Below, one piece after another: positions 3,814 to 18,907 of a DNA stretch of 19,276 bases. The DNA is from a virus. Its lineage: Duplodnaviria; Heunggongvirae; Uroviricota; Caudoviricetes. The notes under the pieces are model-generated. The model was not told the DNA's origin. It made no database searches and saw only the letters and a program-made list of their open reading frames with translations. Every line of letters begins with the position of its first letter. Position 1 is the first letter of the stretch. The translations under genes were made by a program, and so were the position numbers. Where the stretch lies: IMG/VR virus record IMGVR_UViG_2617270963_000006; one strand, given 5' to 3'.

Positions 3814-4018
3814 GAGATCCGGGTCTTGAACCTACACAAACTATATAGCTCTCTTCTTTCCTCGGAAGGCCAGGTGCATCTAGCAGACGGCCTAGTTCGA
3901 ATTTTTTTACGTTGACACCAGGAGGAATCACCTCGACGATAAACCCGATTTTTACCTTCGTTACACCGTTTGATGAGCTTGACCATTTAACTTCATCGTT
4001 CAATTTGAACTTCATCAT
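3734..4018 (-). CDS. hypothetical protein, about 94 aa, immediately downstream of N
   Basis: ORF track 3734-4078; tandem ATGs at 4016-4018 and 4013-4015 preceded by GAGG; starts just after the N stop codon. Confidence 0.4.
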   Translation of the reverse strand: MMKFKLNDEVKWSSSSNGVTKVKIGFIVEVIPPGVNVKKFELGRLLDAPGLPRKEESYIVCVGSRPGSRAKPKYYWPRVNNLRRLQQKTCALKT

Positions 4019-4023
4019 TAACC

Positions 4024-4329
4024 TCAATCGTAATAAGCCGGAATTGATTTTCCGCGTTGTTTCTGGCGGCCTGAGCAAGTCACACCCATTTCACTGCGTG
4101 GTTTGCGGTAGTAAATACGGTTCTGTTTACTCTCGACTTCTTCTGCCTTCTTGCAGCGAAGGCTTCCGAGTGATACTGCTTTGTCTGCTCCGACGCAACC
4201 AGAGATCTTTAGCGCAATCTTCCGTGTCAGTCTTTCACTACTGCGCCGCTCTGCAATAAGTTCTTCCCTGCGAGCTTTATAGCGGCTTTTTGCCGTACCT
4301 TTGGATTCTTTCCAGATTATGGTTACCAT
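4024..4329 (-). CDS. N: N-like transcription antitermination protein (about 101 aa)
   Basis: Arg-rich N-terminus (SRYKARREELIAERRSSER) and a C-terminus (YYRKPRSEMGVTCSGRQKQRGKSIPAYYD) closely resembling the lambda N C-terminus. ATG at 4327-4329 with AGGAGA 5 nt upstream. Sits downstream of a nut-like site and leftward of cI. Confidence 0.7.
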   Translation of the reverse strand: MVTIIWKESKGTAKSRYKARREELIAERRSSERLTRKIALKISGCVGADKAVSLGSLRCKKAEEVESKQNRIYYRKPRSEMGVTCSGRQKQRGKSIPAYYD

Positions 4330-4439
4330 GATGGTCTCCTTTAAGTGGCTTTGGTGTATGACGCGTCGAGGTGTTTTTCTTCTCGATCGCGGCCTTGCAA
4401 CTGAAATTCGCGTCATCCCCAAAACCACTTAGATTTTGG

Positions 4440-4479
4440 TCTCAACGGTTAGGTTGAGAGTCCATCAATGTTAAAGAGC
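4440..4479 (-). promoter_or_regulatory. nutL-like site: boxA (GCTCTTTAACATTG) followed by a boxB hairpin (TCTCAAC-CTAACC-GTTGAGA) on the minus strand
   Basis: Read directly on the minus strand. The same boxA string recurs downstream of cro at 6087-6101. Confidence 0.5.
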
Positions 4480-4662
4480 CGGCCAATCTGTTCCGTTTGG
4501 CTTCCAGCGTCCTGCTGTTGAATTGAAGATGACCTAAGTTATCTGGTTGCGCAATAACTATATTTATCATTTTATGAAAAACGTTATAAATGACTGATAA
4601 CAAAAATATTTTATTTTTTGTGGTATCCGCGTGATATTTTCAAGGGGGAAAGGCTGATTGTT

Positions 4663-4884
4663 ATGGGTGATTGCATGTTAATCGAAGGGGAATTTGGTGT
4701 GTTGCACCAGCGGGTAGTCGAAATTCTAGGGGTGTCGTTGCTTGAGGTTATTGCTACTGGGGAAGCTATTTCAGCAGATGCTATTGCGGGAATGATCCGA
4801 GTGCTTCACCATGATGAATTGGATGATCTCGCTGTGAAGTTAGCTATAGATGTGTTACTTCAGGATATGCGACTGTGTAATTAA
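4663..4884 (+). CDS. hypothetical small acidic protein (about 73 aa) between nutL and cI, opposite in orientation to both
   Basis: ORF track 4618-4884; ATG at 4663 preceded by AAGGGGGAAAGG; AT-rich upstream region; hairpin immediately downstream. Confidence 0.4.
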   Translation: MGDCMLIEGEFGVLHQRVVEILGVSLLEVIATGEAISADAIAGMIRVLHHDELDDLAVKLAIDVLLQDMRLCN

Positions 4885-4917
4885 GTAAATAAAACCCGGC
4901 ACTGGAGCCGGGGGATT
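4885..4917 (-). terminator. rho-independent terminator for leftward (cI) transcription
   Basis: Hairpin CCCGGC-ACTGGA-GCCGGG at 4895-4912; on the minus strand it is followed by TTTTATTTA. Confidence 0.5.
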
Positions 4918-5036
4918 TAGAAATGGCATTTTATGAATTGGCTACTTGGCGAATGGTTTACCATCGGTGGTATTGAGCACAATAAAAGGCCGTTCTTCGT
5001 GAGTGTTCTTATAGCAAAAGTTCAGTTGGAGTCTGA

Positions 5037-10643: not shown

Positions 10644-10774
10644 ATTCATTACGATATGGGAATTCCCATATCGGGTAAAAACGGTTTGCGGTAAAGCGAG
10701 AGTTAAGCAGAATTGCTGCGGGTGCTTGAGGCTGTCTGCCTCGGGCATGCCACCGTAAGGCAGACAGAGAAAAA

Positions 10775-10860
10775 CCCCAGTTAACATTACGCGTCCTGCA
10801 AGACGCCTAACATTAATCTGAGGCCAATTTCATGCTAGACACATGTAGGTTAGCCTCTTA
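10775..10860 (-). ncRNA. sok: candidate Sok-like antisense RNA of the hok/sok module (position approximate)
   Basis: Inferred from hok-family organisation: the antisense regulator lies opposite the hok leader. No promoter or terminator was pinned down. Confidence 0.3.
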
Positions 10861-10888
10861 CGCGCCGAAAGGCAAGGAGAAGCAGGCT

Positions 10889-11044
10889 ATGAAGCAGCAA
10901 AAGGCGATGTTAGTCGCCCTGATCGTCATCTGTATTACCGTCGTAGTGACGGCACTGGTAACGAGGAAAGACCTCTGCGAGGTACGAATCCGAACCGGTC
11001 AGACGGAGGTTGCTGTCTTCACAGCTTACAAACCTGAGGAGTAA
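10889..11044 (+). CDS. hok: Hok/Gef-family type I toxin (51 aa)
   Basis: MKQQKAMLVALIVICITVVVTALVTRKDLCEVRIRTGQTEVAVFTAYKPEE is nearly identical to chromosomal Hok homologues (HokD/RelF as recalled). In-frame upstream extension from ATG 10832 (track ORF 10832-11044). Terminator follows. Confidence 0.85.
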   Translation: MKQQKAMLVALIVICITVVVTALVTRKDLCEVRIRTGQTEVAVFTAYKPEE

Positions 11045-11253: not shown

Positions 11254-11433
11254 ATGAGCTACGCACTAAAAAAACACCCGCGATTGACTATTCCCCCTCG
11301 CGATAAAAGCGTTGTGGCAGCTCCGCGCCCGGCTATCGATGAAAATTGCACTCATCGTGAGCAGGTGAAAAATGCTTTCGATTTCGGTTTTTCTCGTTAC
11401 GAGAAGGCAATGGAAGAACTTTCAAAAGTGTAA
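11254..11433 (+). CDS. putative antitoxin of the Doc-family module (59 aa)
   Basis: Small ORF immediately upstream of the Doc-like toxin, separated by about 18 nt; ATG at 11254 (track ORF begins at a TTG at 11209). Not recognisably Phd-like. Confidence 0.5.
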   Translation: MSYALKKHPRLTIPPRDKSVVAAPRPAIDENCTHREQVKNAFDFGFSRYEKAMEELSKV

Positions 11434-11937: not shown

Positions 11938-11953
11938 AGGTGCTTCTAATGAA

Positions 11954-11976
11954 AATCCGCTTCGGCGGGTTTTGTT
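11954..11976 (+). terminator. rho-independent terminator after the Doc module
   Basis: CCGC-TTCG-GCGG followed by a T-rich tract. Confidence 0.55.
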
Positions 11977-11987
11977 GTATTGGAGTA

Positions 11988-12305
11988 TCATGATATTACT
12001 TGGATCCCGTTTTTCTCTACGACTGAAAGAAGGCGAAGAGCGGCACCTCCCGGCCGTTTTACACCACGTTCCCAGTCTGATATCAGGTTTTTACTGACGT
12101 TGAGGTATCTGGCAAAAACAGGTTGAGACAGATGCTCTCGTTCGCGCAGTGCACGGATCCTTTCCGGAGACATTACCGGCGCTGGCTGGAGACAAGTTTC
12201 ATCGAATTCTCGCATAGTCTGTTTCGTTACTGCGCCGATATCATGAAGCGATTCCATCATTTCATGTACGGATGCAAGCGCATCACTGCGGTAATTTTTA
12301 CTCAT
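11988..12305 (-). CDS. HTH (XRE-type) antitoxin, HigA/MqsA-like, 105 aa
   Basis: C-terminal HTH (LSQPVFARYLNVSKNLISDWERGVKRPGGAALRLL); GGAGG 7 nt upstream; lies directly downstream of a RelE-like toxin ORF on the same strand. Confidence 0.65.
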   Translation of the reverse strand: MSKNYRSDALASVHEMMESLHDIGAVTKQTMREFDETCLQPAPVMSPERIRALREREHLSQPVFARYLNVSKNLISDWERGVKRPGGAALRLLSVVEKNGIQVIS

Positions 12306-12359
12306 TGGGTACCTCCGTAAACTGACCCTGTAGAATCAGTTGTGCCAGTTGTTCATCTG

Positions 12360-12668
12360 TTAGATTGAGTACGTGAGGAGCCCCTTCCGAAATGCACTTT
12401 CCTCAGTAGCGGTTATATTTTCACGTTCATTTTTTGCGTATGCATATACGAAAAAGGCCCTTGTGCCGACGCGATAGAAAATGATTGTGCGATAACCGCC
12501 AGATTTGCCGCCACCGACTCGTGGCAGACGTTGCTTGATAACGCCGTTACCCAGGTTTGCTGAGATAAGCCCGTTATCAGCCTGTTTAACAATTTCGCGC
12601 AGTGACTGGTCGGATATTTTGTTTTTGTGTGCAAATCGCTCAAACCAGGCGTTTTTAAAAATGCGCAT
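12360..12668 (-). CDS. RelE/ParE-superfamily toxin (HigB-like; toxin-first arrangement), 102 aa
   Basis: Segment GGGKSGGYRTIIFYRVGTRAFFVYAYAKNEREN is typical of RelE/HigB-like killer proteins; followed by the HTH antitoxin. Confidence 0.65.
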   Translation of the reverse strand: MRIFKNAWFERFAHKNKISDQSLREIVKQADNGLISANLGNGVIKQRLPRVGGGKSGGYRTIIFYRVGTRAFFVYAYAKNERENITATEESAFRKGLLTYSI

Positions 12669-12772
12669 TTTTTTGTTCCGTTATTAATGTATAACACATA
12701 GTATTACATTGCGTAGGGATCTGCAATGCCATCAGTTTGACAACGTCGCGTATCCGGGATTATATTCATCGC

Positions 12773-12851
12773 ACGCCAGCAAAATCTGGCGTCGGGATTA
12801 GGAACCCCGGATAGAAACCGCGACAGAGACACGCCGCGAGCGTGTTTTTTA
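12773..12851 (+). ncRNA. candidate small RNA (about 80 nt) with its own promoter and intrinsic terminator, carrying a TTAGGAAC motif
   Basis: Promoter TTGACA (12737-12742), 18-nt spacer, TATATT (12761-12766). Terminator ACACGC-CGCGA-GCGTGT plus T-run at 12829-12851. No ORF. Confidence 0.3.
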
Positions 12852-13013
12852 TTGTCGTATGCACACGCACATCTGAATTATGGTGGGGCGTATAGGGGAG
12901 CTGAAAAGCTCGCCGGTTGGTTTCCCGGTAGTTCCTAACCCTGTACGTCTCGCCACCCGATGATTAGGAACCTGACGGTGGTGATAGTTTAGAAACCACT
13001 CGAGGGCGTCATT

Positions 13014-13685
13014 ATGACAACTCAAGTTTCTGTTGAAACACTCTCCACGATTACTTACAAGCAGATCCCCGTTATCACTACCGAACTTTTGGCGCACCTT
13101 TACGGCACAGAAGCTATTCGTATTCGCCAGAATCACCACGAAAACAAAGGTCGTTTCATTGAGGAAAAACACTTCTTCAAACTTGAAGGTGAAACTTTAC
13201 GTGAGTTCAAGCACAGAGTAGCTTTTAACTACTCTGTGAAAATTGCCCGTAACGTTCGCTCCCTCATCCTATGGACAGAACGCGGCGCAGCCCGTCACGC
13301 AAAAATGCTCGAAACTGATCAGGCGTGGGAGGTATTCGAAAAACTGGAAGACTGCTATTTCAGCCAGGGAAAAACAGCACCAACCGAACAGCAGCCGCAG
13401 ATTCAGCCACAATTCACAGCCGAAGAAATCATCCTCCTTTGCTACATGCAGCTCTGGATGGAAAAAGCCCAGGACCTCAGCAAACACCTGTATCCCATTA
13501 TGAAAGAGCTGAACTCCTCATACACGAACAAGCTGTATGACATTGCGTTTGAGACCATCTACATGGTGACGAAGAACAGAGACGCGCTACTAAGGGAGGT
13601 AACACGTCTCGACATGTCAAGTTCCATTATCCAGCGGGCCATGCCAATGCTGAAAAGCCTGCGGGCAAGACAATTTGAATTCTGA
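13014..13685 (+). CDS. phage antirepressor-like regulator (ORF6N/Rha-type N-terminal domain), 223 aa
   Basis: N-terminal segment (ITYKQIPVITTELLAHLYGTEAIRIRQNHHENKGRFIEEKHFFKLEG) resembles ORF6N/Rha antirepressor domains; GAGGG RBS; terminator follows. Confidence 0.6.
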   Translation: MTTQVSVETLSTITYKQIPVITTELLAHLYGTEAIRIRQNHHENKGRFIEEKHFFKLEGETLREFKHRVAFNYSVKIARNVRSLILWTERGAARHAKMLETDQAWEVFEKLEDCYFSQGKTAPTEQQPQIQPQFTAEEIILLCYMQLWMEKAQDLSKHLYPIMKELNSSYTNKLYDIAFETIYMVTKNRDALLREVTRLDMSSSIIQRAMPMLKSLRARQFEF

Positions 13686-16649: not shown

Positions 16650-16885
16650 GTATCCGTTCAACGGGAATGTTACATACCTCACAATTAAGTCAGTTGAATG
16701 TTGTCTGCCCGGATGAGAATTTGTTAGAAAAAACTGCATGGTGAATCCCCCTGAGCGGAGGGGCGACTGGTGACGGTATAATCTCTGATTATCAAAACGA
16801 GAATGACGCGGGTTTAGTGGCACCGGGCTGAACTCACCGGGAGGCACCCGGCACCATGCAATGGCACATAGCGCCACTCTCCAGC

Positions 16886-16940
16886 CCCTCTCCGGAGGGG
16901 CTTTCTTATGGACAAAAAAGCCCGCGCTGGGAGACGCGGG
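16886..16940. terminator. back-to-back hairpins: plus-strand CCCCTC-TCCG-GAGGGG then T-rich; minus-strand terminator (A-run, then GCCCGCG-CTGGGAGA-CGCGGGC)
   Basis: Read directly from the sequence; orientation of function uncertain. Confidence 0.4.
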
Positions 16941-17134: not shown

Positions 17135-18907
17135 ATGGCATTTAAACACTATGATGTTGTCAGGGCGGCGTCGCCGTCAGACCTTGCGAAACGAATAACT
17201 CAAAAACTGAAGGAAGGGGGGCAGCCTTATGGTAGTGCGCTGATTTCGACAGCTGGTTATGGTGCGGAGTTCATCCAGCCAGTTGTGAGTGAGGGGAGCA
17301 TCTCATCACCAGAGGAGCCAGGCAACCGTCCGACGACCTCAGCGCCTTCTGTTGCGCCAGAATATTACTATGTGATCGCGCTTGCTGGTCAGTCCAATGG
17401 TATGTCATACGGTGAGGGACTGCCATTACCGGATACATTCGACAGCCCTGATCCACGTATTAAACAGTTAGCGCGTCGCAGTACGGTGACACCGGGCGGT
17501 GCAGCATGCAAATATAACGACATCATTCCGGCGGACCATTGTCTGCATGATGTGCAGGACATGAGCCGTCTTAACCATCCGAAAGCGGACCTGTCAAAGG
17601 GGCAGTACGGAACCGTGGGGCAGGGGCTGCATATCGCCAAAAAACTGCTGCCGTTTATACCGGCGAATGCGGGCATTCTGCTGGTTCCGTGCTGTCGTGG
17701 GGGTTCAGCGTTCACCACCGGAGCTGATGGCACATACAGTGACGCGAGTGGCGCCTCGGAGAATTCACCCCGCTGGGGTGTGGAAAAGCCGCTGTATAAG
17801 GACCTTATCGGTCGAACAAAAGCGGCACTGGAGAAGAACCCGAAAAATGTGCTGTTTGCCGTGGTGTGGATGCAGGGGGAATTTGATTTTGGCGGTACGC
17901 CGGCAAATCATGCCGCACAGTTTGGTGCGCTGGTTGATAAATTCCGTGCAGACCTGGCGGATATGGCAGGCCAGTGCGTCGGTGGCTCTGCTGGCGGTGT
18001 TCCCTGGATATGCGGGGACACGACGTATTTCTGGAAGCAGAAGAACGAATCCACGTACCAGACGGTGTACGGCAGCTATAAAAATAAAACGGAAAAGAAT
18101 ATCCATTTCGTACCGTTCATGACCGATGAGAACGGGGTGAATGTGCCGACGAACAAACCGGAAGAAGACCCGGACATTCCGGGTATCGGTTATTACGGTT
18201 CGAAATGGCGTGACAGCTCAGCCACCTGGACGTCACAGGACAGGGCGAGCCATTTCAGTTCATGGGCTCGCCGTGGGATTATTTCCGACCGTCTGGCAAC
18301 GGCGATTCTGAGCTGCGCGGGTAAGTCTTCTGCGTTTGTTAATGGTACTGCCGGGGTGGTTGTTCCAGACAGACCGGTTACCACCTCAGAGTCTGTAATT
18401 TTTTACGATGCCAAAAAAGCTACAGACAATCAGCTGAAACCCTATGGCTGGGACGGTGTGTATGGCAGGGGCACACTGGTTGATGACAGCGGCAATAAAG
18501 CTCTGCGAATTGAGAAAAATAACAGCGCGAAATCCTGGTCAATGTACTGTGATATTGCTGCAGACAAGGCAAAACTTTTACTGGAAAAAGGCGGGGAAAT
18601 TGCTGTCCGGTTTAAAATCCCCGAAAACGTCAATCTTGAGACAACCAGAAACAAGTATGCCTTTGGTTTGTACTGGCGAATAGCGGAATGGCCGGGTGAG
18701 GGTGGTGAAGGCCATCTGAGTTCTTTCTTTGTCCAGACAGATAAAGCCAGTATTAATGTTGCATACCATCATACAGTTAATCAACAAAAAGAACTTGGCA
18801 CGTTTGGCGCATTCGACCATGACTGGCATACGCTTGCATTTAAATTTAAGGGCAGTAACAGCATTAATGAACCGCCCCGGGTTTCCTGGAGAGTGTTTTA
18901 TCTGTGA
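17135..18907 (+). CDS. nanS: NanS-p-type prophage esterase (DUF1737 N-terminus plus SGNH/SASA sialate O-acetylesterase domain), C-terminally truncated and fused to IS sequence
   Basis: N-terminus MAFKHYDVVRAASPSDLAKRITQKLKEGGQPYG and the GQSNG motif (IALAGQSNGMSYG) are characteristic of NanS-p encoded downstream of Q/stx in lambdoid prophages. The frame enters the IS at 18868, so the last 12 codons are IS-derived. Confidence 0.75.
   Translation: MAFKHYDVVRAASPSDLAKRITQKLKEGGQPYGSALISTAGYGAEFIQPVVSEGSISSPEEPGNRPTTSAPSVAPEYYYVIALAGQSNGMSYGEGLPLPDTFDSPDPRIKQLARRSTVTPGGAACKYNDIIPADHCLHDVQDMSRLNHPKADLSKGQYGTVGQGLHIAKKLLPFIPANAGILLVPCCRGGSAFTTGADGTYSDASGASENSPRWGVEKPLYKDLIGRTKAALEKNPKNVLFAVVWMQGEFDFGGTPANHAAQFGALVDKFRADLADMAGQCVGGSAGGVPWICGDTTYFWKQKNESTYQTVYGSYKNKTEKNIHFVPFMTDENGVNVPTNKPEEDPDIPGIGYYGSKWRDSSATWTSQDRASHFSSWARRGIISDRLATAILSCAGKSSAFVNGTAGVVVPDRPVTTSESVIFYDAKKATDNQLKPYGWDGVYGRGTLVDDSGNKALRIEKNNSAKSWSMYCDIAADKAKLLLEKGGEIAVRFKIPENVNLETTRNKYAFGLYWRIAEWPGEGGEGHLSSFFVQTDKASINVAYHHTVNQQKELGTFGAFDHDWHTLAFKFKGSNSINEPPRVSWRVFYL

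Follow-up and report, generated by a model that had tools for sequence, protein, structure and literature searches.

The closest described systems to the gene pair analyzed here are toxin–antitoxin (TA) modules of the HigBA type. The toxin family PF06296 (HigB2/RelE) is encoded in toxin-first modules and degrades mRNA in a ribosome-dependent manner (PMC11980606). In HigB2/HigA2 of Vibrio cholerae (VCA0468-0469; PDB 5ja8, 5jaa, 8a0x), the disordered N-terminal segment of HigA2 folds onto the toxin, neutralizes it and displaces helix α3, and the C-terminal helix-turn-helix (HTH) dimer binds DNA (PMC5416850). HigB/HigA of Proteus vulgaris Rts1, the founding HigBA system, is likewise toxin-first and pairs a ribosome-dependent mRNase of the RelE superfamily with an HTH antitoxin. 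The present locus lies on a 19,276-nucleotide (nt) stretch of DNA from a virus of the Caudoviricetes (IMG/VR record IMGVR_UViG_2617270963_000006), hereafter called the window, which represents the early-right and nin region of a lambdoid Escherichia coli prophage. The locus is a HigB2/HigA2-type type II TA cassette, an accessory gene pair in the nin region. Modules of this kind (HigBA2, or PF06296 with an XRE-type HTH protein) are already known and are generically annotated in RefSeq; here the module is in a frameshifted state. In searches of the literature, no experiments on this prophage module came to light.

In the toxin gene, one C is missing from codon 96. We consider it likely that this loss has left an attenuated or inactive toxin beside a functional antitoxin/repressor and that the module is decaying. 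The pair in the window is decayed or at best attenuated, and not a demonstrably working one. The original prediction, made from the sequence alone, had described a toxin-first RelE/HigB-like module with an HTH antitoxin, divergent from the promoter of a small RNA (sRNA). Its toxin family, gene order and divergent promoter stand; it misread the architecture, since the 102-residue toxin and the 54-nt spacer that it took as native are both due to the deletion of a single nucleotide.

A HigB2/HigA2-type cassette with a frameshifted toxin gene

The features of the module are as follows.
12360..12668, minus strand: truncated toxin open reading frame (ORF), 102 amino acids, ATG start; program-made ORF list
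11988..12305, minus strand: antitoxin ORF, 105 amino acids, ATG start; program-made ORF list
12381..12384, minus strand: frameshift site, GGGG in the window and GGCGG (or GGTGG) in intact alleles; DNA alignment
12298..12382, minus strand: out-of-frame remnant of the toxin C-terminus, 27 codons and the TAA at 12300-12298; frame translation
12312..12316, minus strand: Shine-Dalgarno sequence of the antitoxin, GGAGG, 6 nt before the ATG; read from the sequence
12686..12710, minus strand: candidate TA promoter/operator, imperfect dyad AATGTAATAC-TATGT-GTTATACATT; found by eye

The ORF list gives both ORFs and the 54 nt between them (12306-12359) as the original prediction had reported them. A profile search assigned the toxin to PF06296 (129.9 bits, E = 7.2e-38), which bears out the proposed membership in the RelE/ParE superfamily. 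The match of the 102-residue ORF covers only profile positions 1-95 of 120; the full-length domain (about 123 residues, profile 1-120) is not present in the window ORF, and the rest is out of frame. The curated cut-off of the family (27 bits) was passed both by the ORF as it stands and by its frame-corrected form. The best PDB sequence match for the toxin was HigB-2, at a weak E value of 4e-3. No NCBIfam model matched the toxin, and PADLOC returned no match for the toxin, the neighboring doc gene or a 59-residue ORF beside doc; a known anti-phage defence system was rejected, as the toxin had no PADLOC match.

The 102-residue product consists of residues 1-95 of a HigB2-family toxin followed by a seven-residue frameshift tail, GLLTYSI. 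In a pairwise comparison with the closest intact relative (L030), the missing base is one C between 12383 and 12382, in codon 96. In an alignment with near-identical E. coli chromosomal copies (L001-L003), the window reads GGAAGG-GGCTCC against GGAAGGCGGCTCC in L003. The other minus-strand frame across the apparent gap reads ...APHVLNLTDEQLAQLILQGQFTEVPNE*, where APHVLNLTDEQLAQLILQGQFTEVPNE is the conserved C-terminus of the family; this frame closes at the TAA 12300-12298 and overlaps the antitoxin ATG (12305-12303). The remnant spans the whole 54-nt gap and an 8-nt overlap with the antitoxin start. When the C was restored, the result was a 123-residue protein that matched PF06296 over positions 1-120 of 120 with 155.5 bits, compared with 129.9 bits for the ORF as it stands. 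The short ORF and the apparent spacer thus arise because one C was lost, and the gap reads as the frameshifted remnant of the last 27 codons of the toxin.

The frameshift is genuine and of recent origin. Across all 861 nt compared, the window matches two independent IMG/VR contigs (L019 and L031) without a difference, and the exact 102-residue product (P0122) was found on 85 contigs in the protein collection. More than 15 complete genomes of the O104:H4 outbreak lineage also lack this C, as does strain 23CRST047. The intact relative L030 differs from the window by seven single-nucleotide polymorphisms and two indels over 847 nt, the indels being the C deletion and an additional A in the A-run immediately 5' of the toxin ATG; the remnant carries no substitution relative to L030.

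To describe the intact form, the reconstructed 123-residue toxin was searched against a collection of 5.8 billion proteins. The search gave 1235 homologues, and most of the best 120, which were listed, are 123-124 residues long. The E. coli protein P0001, which is intact and exactly 123 residues long, is 98% identical to the reconstructed toxin and occurs on 654 contigs. In eight loci that encode it (L004-L011), the toxin gene (4001-4372) and the antitoxin gene (4365-4685) share 8 nt. Together with the full-profile match obtained on repair, these intact relatives indicate that, in the native architecture, a toxin gene for 123 residues runs into the start of its antitoxin gene. The intact allele from E. 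coli prophages, which NCBI names “type II toxin-antitoxin system RelE/ParE family toxin”, has an antitoxin of the same family as that of the window and, like the window, diverges from an ORF6N antirepressor-like gene in lambdoid prophages. In contrast, the window has 102 residues rather than 123 and a 54-nt gap rather than the 8-nt overlap. Of the eight intact loci, seven (L004-L010) have a second small gene behind the antitoxin gene, at the place occupied by the convergent doc gene in the window, and thereby suggest a three-gene arrangement. This second gene (4696-5001, plus strand) matches HTH_3 and is about 101 residues long in six loci; in L010, the gene call at this position is 154 residues long with no Pfam hit on record.

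The downstream gene encodes an XRE-type HTH antitoxin, in the predicted toxin-first order, with HigA2 as its closest relative. A region of about 44 residues at the N-terminus is followed by a C-terminal XRE HTH domain similar to that of HigA2. The protein matched HTH_3 at residues 50-94 (E = 1e-7) and HTH_31 in Pfam, V. cholerae HigA-2 chains (5jaa/5j9i) over residues 45-99 (E = 7.9e-8), and phrog_2104 with an E value of 3e-43, the last match including residues 1-44. This N-terminus is of the right length, without detectable sequence similarity to the HigA2 N-terminus. All NCBIfam matches of the antitoxin (MqsA-like, NadS and others) were below cut-off, and PADLOC gave only generic HTH matches for it. 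Because the antitoxin gene has a strong GGAGG of its own, lost translational coupling should not silence it, and this Shine-Dalgarno sequence would permit translation uncoupled from the toxin.

The module resembles V. cholerae HigB2/HigA2 in several respects. Both toxins belong to PF06296 and both modules are toxin-first, the Arg/Arg/Tyr/Lys active-site residues of HigB2 are shared by the window toxin, and HigA2 has the same size and layout as the window antitoxin, with an N-terminal segment and a C-terminal XRE-HTH domain. HigB2 is also the top structural match of the modelled intact toxin. In contrast, the identity between the toxins is only about 25%, at the weak E value given above, and the toxins of the E. 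coli prophage subfamily continue at the C-terminus for about 25 further, conserved residues (profile 97-120), which are absent from V. cholerae HigB2 (VcHigB2). The V. cholerae module is located in a superintegron, whereas the window copy lies in a lambdoid prophage and has a frameshifted toxin gene. Rts1 HigB, unlike the window toxin, is outside PF06296 (Table 1 of PMC11980606); the resemblance to Rts1 HigBA is one of gene order, not of close homology.

By homology with V. cholerae HigBA2, the intact module would form one operon encoding first a 123-residue ribosome-dependent mRNA endonuclease and then an antitoxin of 105-106 residues. The N-terminal segment of the antitoxin would fold onto the toxin and neutralize it, and its C-terminal XRE-HTH dimer would repress the operon promoter, with the toxin as co-repressor; the repressed promoter is probably at a conserved block at 12690-12708. 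In the window, the loss of C at codon 96 shifts the frame and ends translation after 102 residues, and the surviving antitoxin could still autoregulate the promoter and would neutralize related incoming toxins.

Toxin lesions and retained antitoxins in related prophages

We took a census of lesions by an IMG/VR search anchored on the antitoxin protein, which is unbiased as to the state of the toxin, and compared the upstream region of each of the 38 loci with an intact reference toxin gene. The toxin gene was broken in 14 of the 38. The original prediction had presented the pair as a working module and had named frameshifts or stops in homologues as evidence that would count against it; such lesions are found in the window itself and in these 14 loci.

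In the lineage of the window (at least 96% nucleotide identity), six loci were intact and 10 were broken. The window lesion, coded del1@287, occurred alone in two of the broken loci, together with del1@43 in four, and together with del6@269 in one; the other three carried del1@43 alone. The other census loci, in which the toxin gene is about 78% identical to the reference, comprised 18 intact loci and four with ins1@96. In addition, the chromosomal copy L001 carries del1@269 and del1@287, and the cluster member P0130 has a separate frameshift at K79. Close relatives therefore hold at least five lesions beyond that of the window (del1@43, del1@269, del6@269, ins1@96 and the frameshift at K79).

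The same pattern was seen in the protein collection. Among the members listed of the 90% cluster, an intact 123-residue toxin is encoded on about 904 contigs and a disrupted one on about 667, and 102-residue forms are found on 85, 19 and 8 contigs; these counts are biased by the heavy sequencing of outbreak clones such as O104:H4. The members of the antitoxin cluster are nearly all 105-106 residues long, and the exact antitoxin sequence of the window is present on at least 1000 contigs. These results indicate an asymmetric decay of the TA pair: the toxin gene has been hit independently at least six times and is broken in about 40% of the sampled copies, while the antitoxin is almost always intact. 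The pattern is a neat population example, if one that will not surprise a TA specialist, and it could serve to ask whether orphan antitoxins are kept in prophages for anti-addiction or regulatory roles.

The main value of the analysis lies in annotation: what looks like a gene for a 102-residue toxin plus a spacer is properly annotated as a HigB2-family toxin gene with a frameshift, next to an intact HigA2-like antitoxin gene. RefSeq annotates broken toxin alleles as ordinary toxins of 104, 68 and 112 residues, and such misannotated alleles inflate counts of toxin diversity. The frameshifted alleles (L001-L003, P0121-P0134) are called by RefSeq/PGAP as normal “RelE/ParE family toxin” coding sequences with no pseudogene flag; their lengths are 68, 84-85, 98, 102, 104 and 112 residues, and some have internal start codons.

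Fold and active site of the truncated toxin, and alternative readings

Intact P0001 was modelled with AlphaFold using 98 homologues, and the model had a mean predicted local distance difference test score (pLDDT) of 71.7. The modelled elements are β1 (2-6), α1 (7-15), α2 (20-31), β2 (45-48), β3 (60-67) and β4 (70-77), followed at the C-terminus by α3 (87-101), α4 (105-113) and β5 (117-119). In a Foldseek search against the PDB, the sole significant match of this model was HigB2 chain 8a0x_D (probability 0.99, TM-score 0.44-0.48). The frameshift interrupts the predicted α3, and α4 and β5 are lost. No other part of the protein was modelled as confidently as the 28 residues lost, of 123 (pLDDT 88-89), and the family conserves them strongly: all 98 aligned homologues have A97 and E119, and L101, D105, Q107, L111, I112, G115, Q116 and F117 are kept in at least 90% of them. 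The loss of this conserved segment probably destabilizes or inactivates the toxin.

The active site of VcHigB2 consists of R51, R64, Y82 and K84 (PMC5416850). In the alignment to HigB-2, the equivalents in the window toxin are R47, R60, Y77 and K79, all of which are kept. The 98 homologues all have R60 and K79, and nearly all have R47; at position 77, the E. coli lineage has Tyr and most other homologues have Phe.

Several points weigh against the favored reading. The model of the intact toxin is of moderate confidence, as its mean pLDDT indicates, and the contig counts carry the sampling bias described above. All four active-site equivalents lie upstream of the lesion, and VcHigB2, which is active, has only three more residues past the KNE motif than the truncated ORF. 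The VcHigB2 sequence used here agrees with the stretch printed in the PDB alignment; it scored 34.5 bits against PF06296 (cut-off 27) and matched profile positions 8-96 only. Because active VcHigB2 matches only this part of the profile, the lost extension is not a universal requirement of the family, and the 102-residue protein might fold and cleave mRNA. The retention of an intact antitoxin would also be expected if residual toxicity persisted.

These points could be taken to mean that the window holds a working TA module, in which a naturally short, “minimal” HigB2-like mRNase of 102 residues is neutralized by the antitoxin and the spacer is without consequence. The kept catalytic equivalents, the absence of profile positions 97-120 from VcHigB2 itself, the wide distribution of the allele on the contigs counted above and the intact antitoxin with its own Shine-Dalgarno sequence agree with such a reading. 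We nevertheless regard it as unlikely, though a real rival. Because the spacer encodes the conserved C-terminus of the subfamily, out of frame and free of substitutions, the short form is a recent lesion rather than an evolved architecture. The lost residues, moreover, include the invariant and near-invariant positions and the best-modelled elements, and second lesions (del1@43, del1@269, del6@269) have accumulated on the same background.

Residual toxicity of the 102-residue product may persist, since the equivalents of all four HigB2 active-site residues survive. A further reading holds that the product is not dead, acting as a minimal mRNase or being rescued by -1 slippage, and that the frameshift alleles are attenuated, tunable toxin states under selection. 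The product could be active because the catalytic equivalents are kept and its length past the KNE motif is about that of active VcHigB2. If true, this would account for the rarity of antitoxin loss, and the alleles would not be pseudogenes; we judge it improbable.

Recoding is very improbable as a source of functional toxin. The frame would be restored by -1 slippage of tRNA-Gly on A-AGG-GGC (G-GGG), or by transcriptional slippage on the G4 run, and a small fraction of near-wild-type 123-residue toxin (RKGAPHV... for RKAAPHV...) would be made stochastically at a low level. In its favor, the frameshift coincides exactly with the GGGG run, on which tRNA-Gly in the P site can pair again without mismatch after a -1 shift, and beyond it the reading frame is entirely open and shows no decay. 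However, the site has no canonical X XXY YYZ heptamer, no significant downstream structure (fold of 12300-12400, minus strand, z = -1.32) and no well-placed upstream Shine-Dalgarno-like stimulator, and the lesions of the sister alleles fall at unrelated sites, a pattern that speaks for random decay and against programmed recoding. Programmed frameshifting was rejected as the main explanation on this z value and the missing slippery heptamer. Finally, although single-base indels are a common assembly error, there is next to no chance that the C was dropped in sequencing or assembly and that the gene is really intact, and this was rejected because the same allele is found in many independent assemblies (the identical contigs L019 and L031, the complete O104:H4 and 23CRST047 genomes, and the 85 contigs encoding the product) and the missing base is a C inside GGCGG rather than a change in homopolymer length. 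We thus favor a decaying cassette with an attenuated or inactive toxin.

Cis elements and neighboring genes

A conserved 19-nt block, TGTAAYACTATGTGTTATA, at 12690-12708 sits inside the dyad 12686-12710. Its near-identical core, TGT.A.ACTATGT.TTA.A, is common to the lineages of the window, L015 and L042, the upstream regions of which are otherwise unrelated. The dyad is the best candidate for a promoter/operator that travels with the cassette. A sigma-70 consensus scan of the minus strand at 12669-12740 found nothing convincing. TTGCAG-17-TACTAT was considered as the TA promoter and rejected, as it matches only 7 of 12 consensus positions and the L015 and L042 lineages do not keep the same spacing.

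An inverted-repeat search returned only an A/T-rich palindrome over the toxin ATG. This perfect 16-nt palindrome, AAAAATGCGCATTTTT, lies at 12657-12672 and is centred on the toxin start codon; it may be a simple result of the conserved MRIFKN codons beside the A-run, or it may be regulatory. The A-run itself (12669-12674, minus strand) varies in length among near-identical prophages, with six A's in the window, L019 and L031 and five or four elsewhere, which alters the distance from a weak GGA Shine-Dalgarno sequence to the toxin start codon.

The following elements adjoin the module.
11952..11973, no strand assigned: stem-loop with flanking A-run and T-run, between the convergent antitoxin and doc genes; terminator scan
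12737-12766, plus strand: divergent promoter, TTGACA-18-TATATT, 11 of 12 consensus positions; consensus scan
12773-12850, plus strand: IsrK-family sRNA (RF01394), Rfam score 69.2 bits against a gathering score of 50, model positions 1-77 of 77
12876-12960, plus strand: C4-antisense-like RNA, Rfam, 66 bits
13014-13685, plus strand: antirepressor-like gene, ORF6N/P22_AR_C

The stem-loop is likely a shared (bidirectional) terminator of the antitoxin and doc genes. On the other side of the module, the divergent sRNA promoter of the original prediction was borne out by its 11/12 consensus match and by the IsrK-family match downstream, which starts 7 nt past the -10 hexamer. The score above the gathering threshold, the promoter upstream and the antirepressor-like gene downstream all agree with membership in the IsrK family. 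The isrK-orf45-anrP module has been characterized in Salmonella Gifsy-1 (PMC4825925), and 12737-13685 (plus strand) of the window is its E. coli counterpart. The divergent promoter is thus present because a unit of the isrK-orf45-anrP type adjoins the TA module; it drives the IsrK-family sRNA and is an adjoining element outside the TA module. It is curious that the isrK and C4 models both match one leader.

Along the window lie, one after another, an exoVIII-like gene, cI (HTH and S24 domains), cII and the gene for an IstB/DnaC-like replication protein. These are followed by DUF1627, DUF977 and DUF551 genes, hok/sok, the 59-residue ORF, doc and the TA module. After the module come isrK, the C4-like RNA, the ORF6N/P22AR antirepressor-like gene, ninB, ninE, rusA, ninH and Q, and then a DnaD_N-domain gene, STnc100 (an sRNA) and the gene for a NanS-p-like esterase.

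With hok/sok, Doc and the HigB2/HigA2-type pair, three TA modules therefore lie side by side in the nin region. The sok Rfam match is at 10720-10894 (plus strand), and the hok ORF, at about 10889-11044, was transferred from L001. The Doc-family toxin (11443/11452-11937, plus strand) matched TIGR01550 with an E value of 1.4e-35. It is preceded by the 59-residue ORF (11254-11433, plus strand), which had no Pfam or PADLOC match and may be the antitoxin of Doc.

Near the end of the window, STnc100 gave a full-length match at 16708-16913 (plus strand, 165 bits), between the DnaD_N-domain gene, which lies downstream of Q, and the NanS-p-like esterase gene. The latter (17135-18907) encodes 590 residues with DUF1737, SASA and DUF6645 domains.

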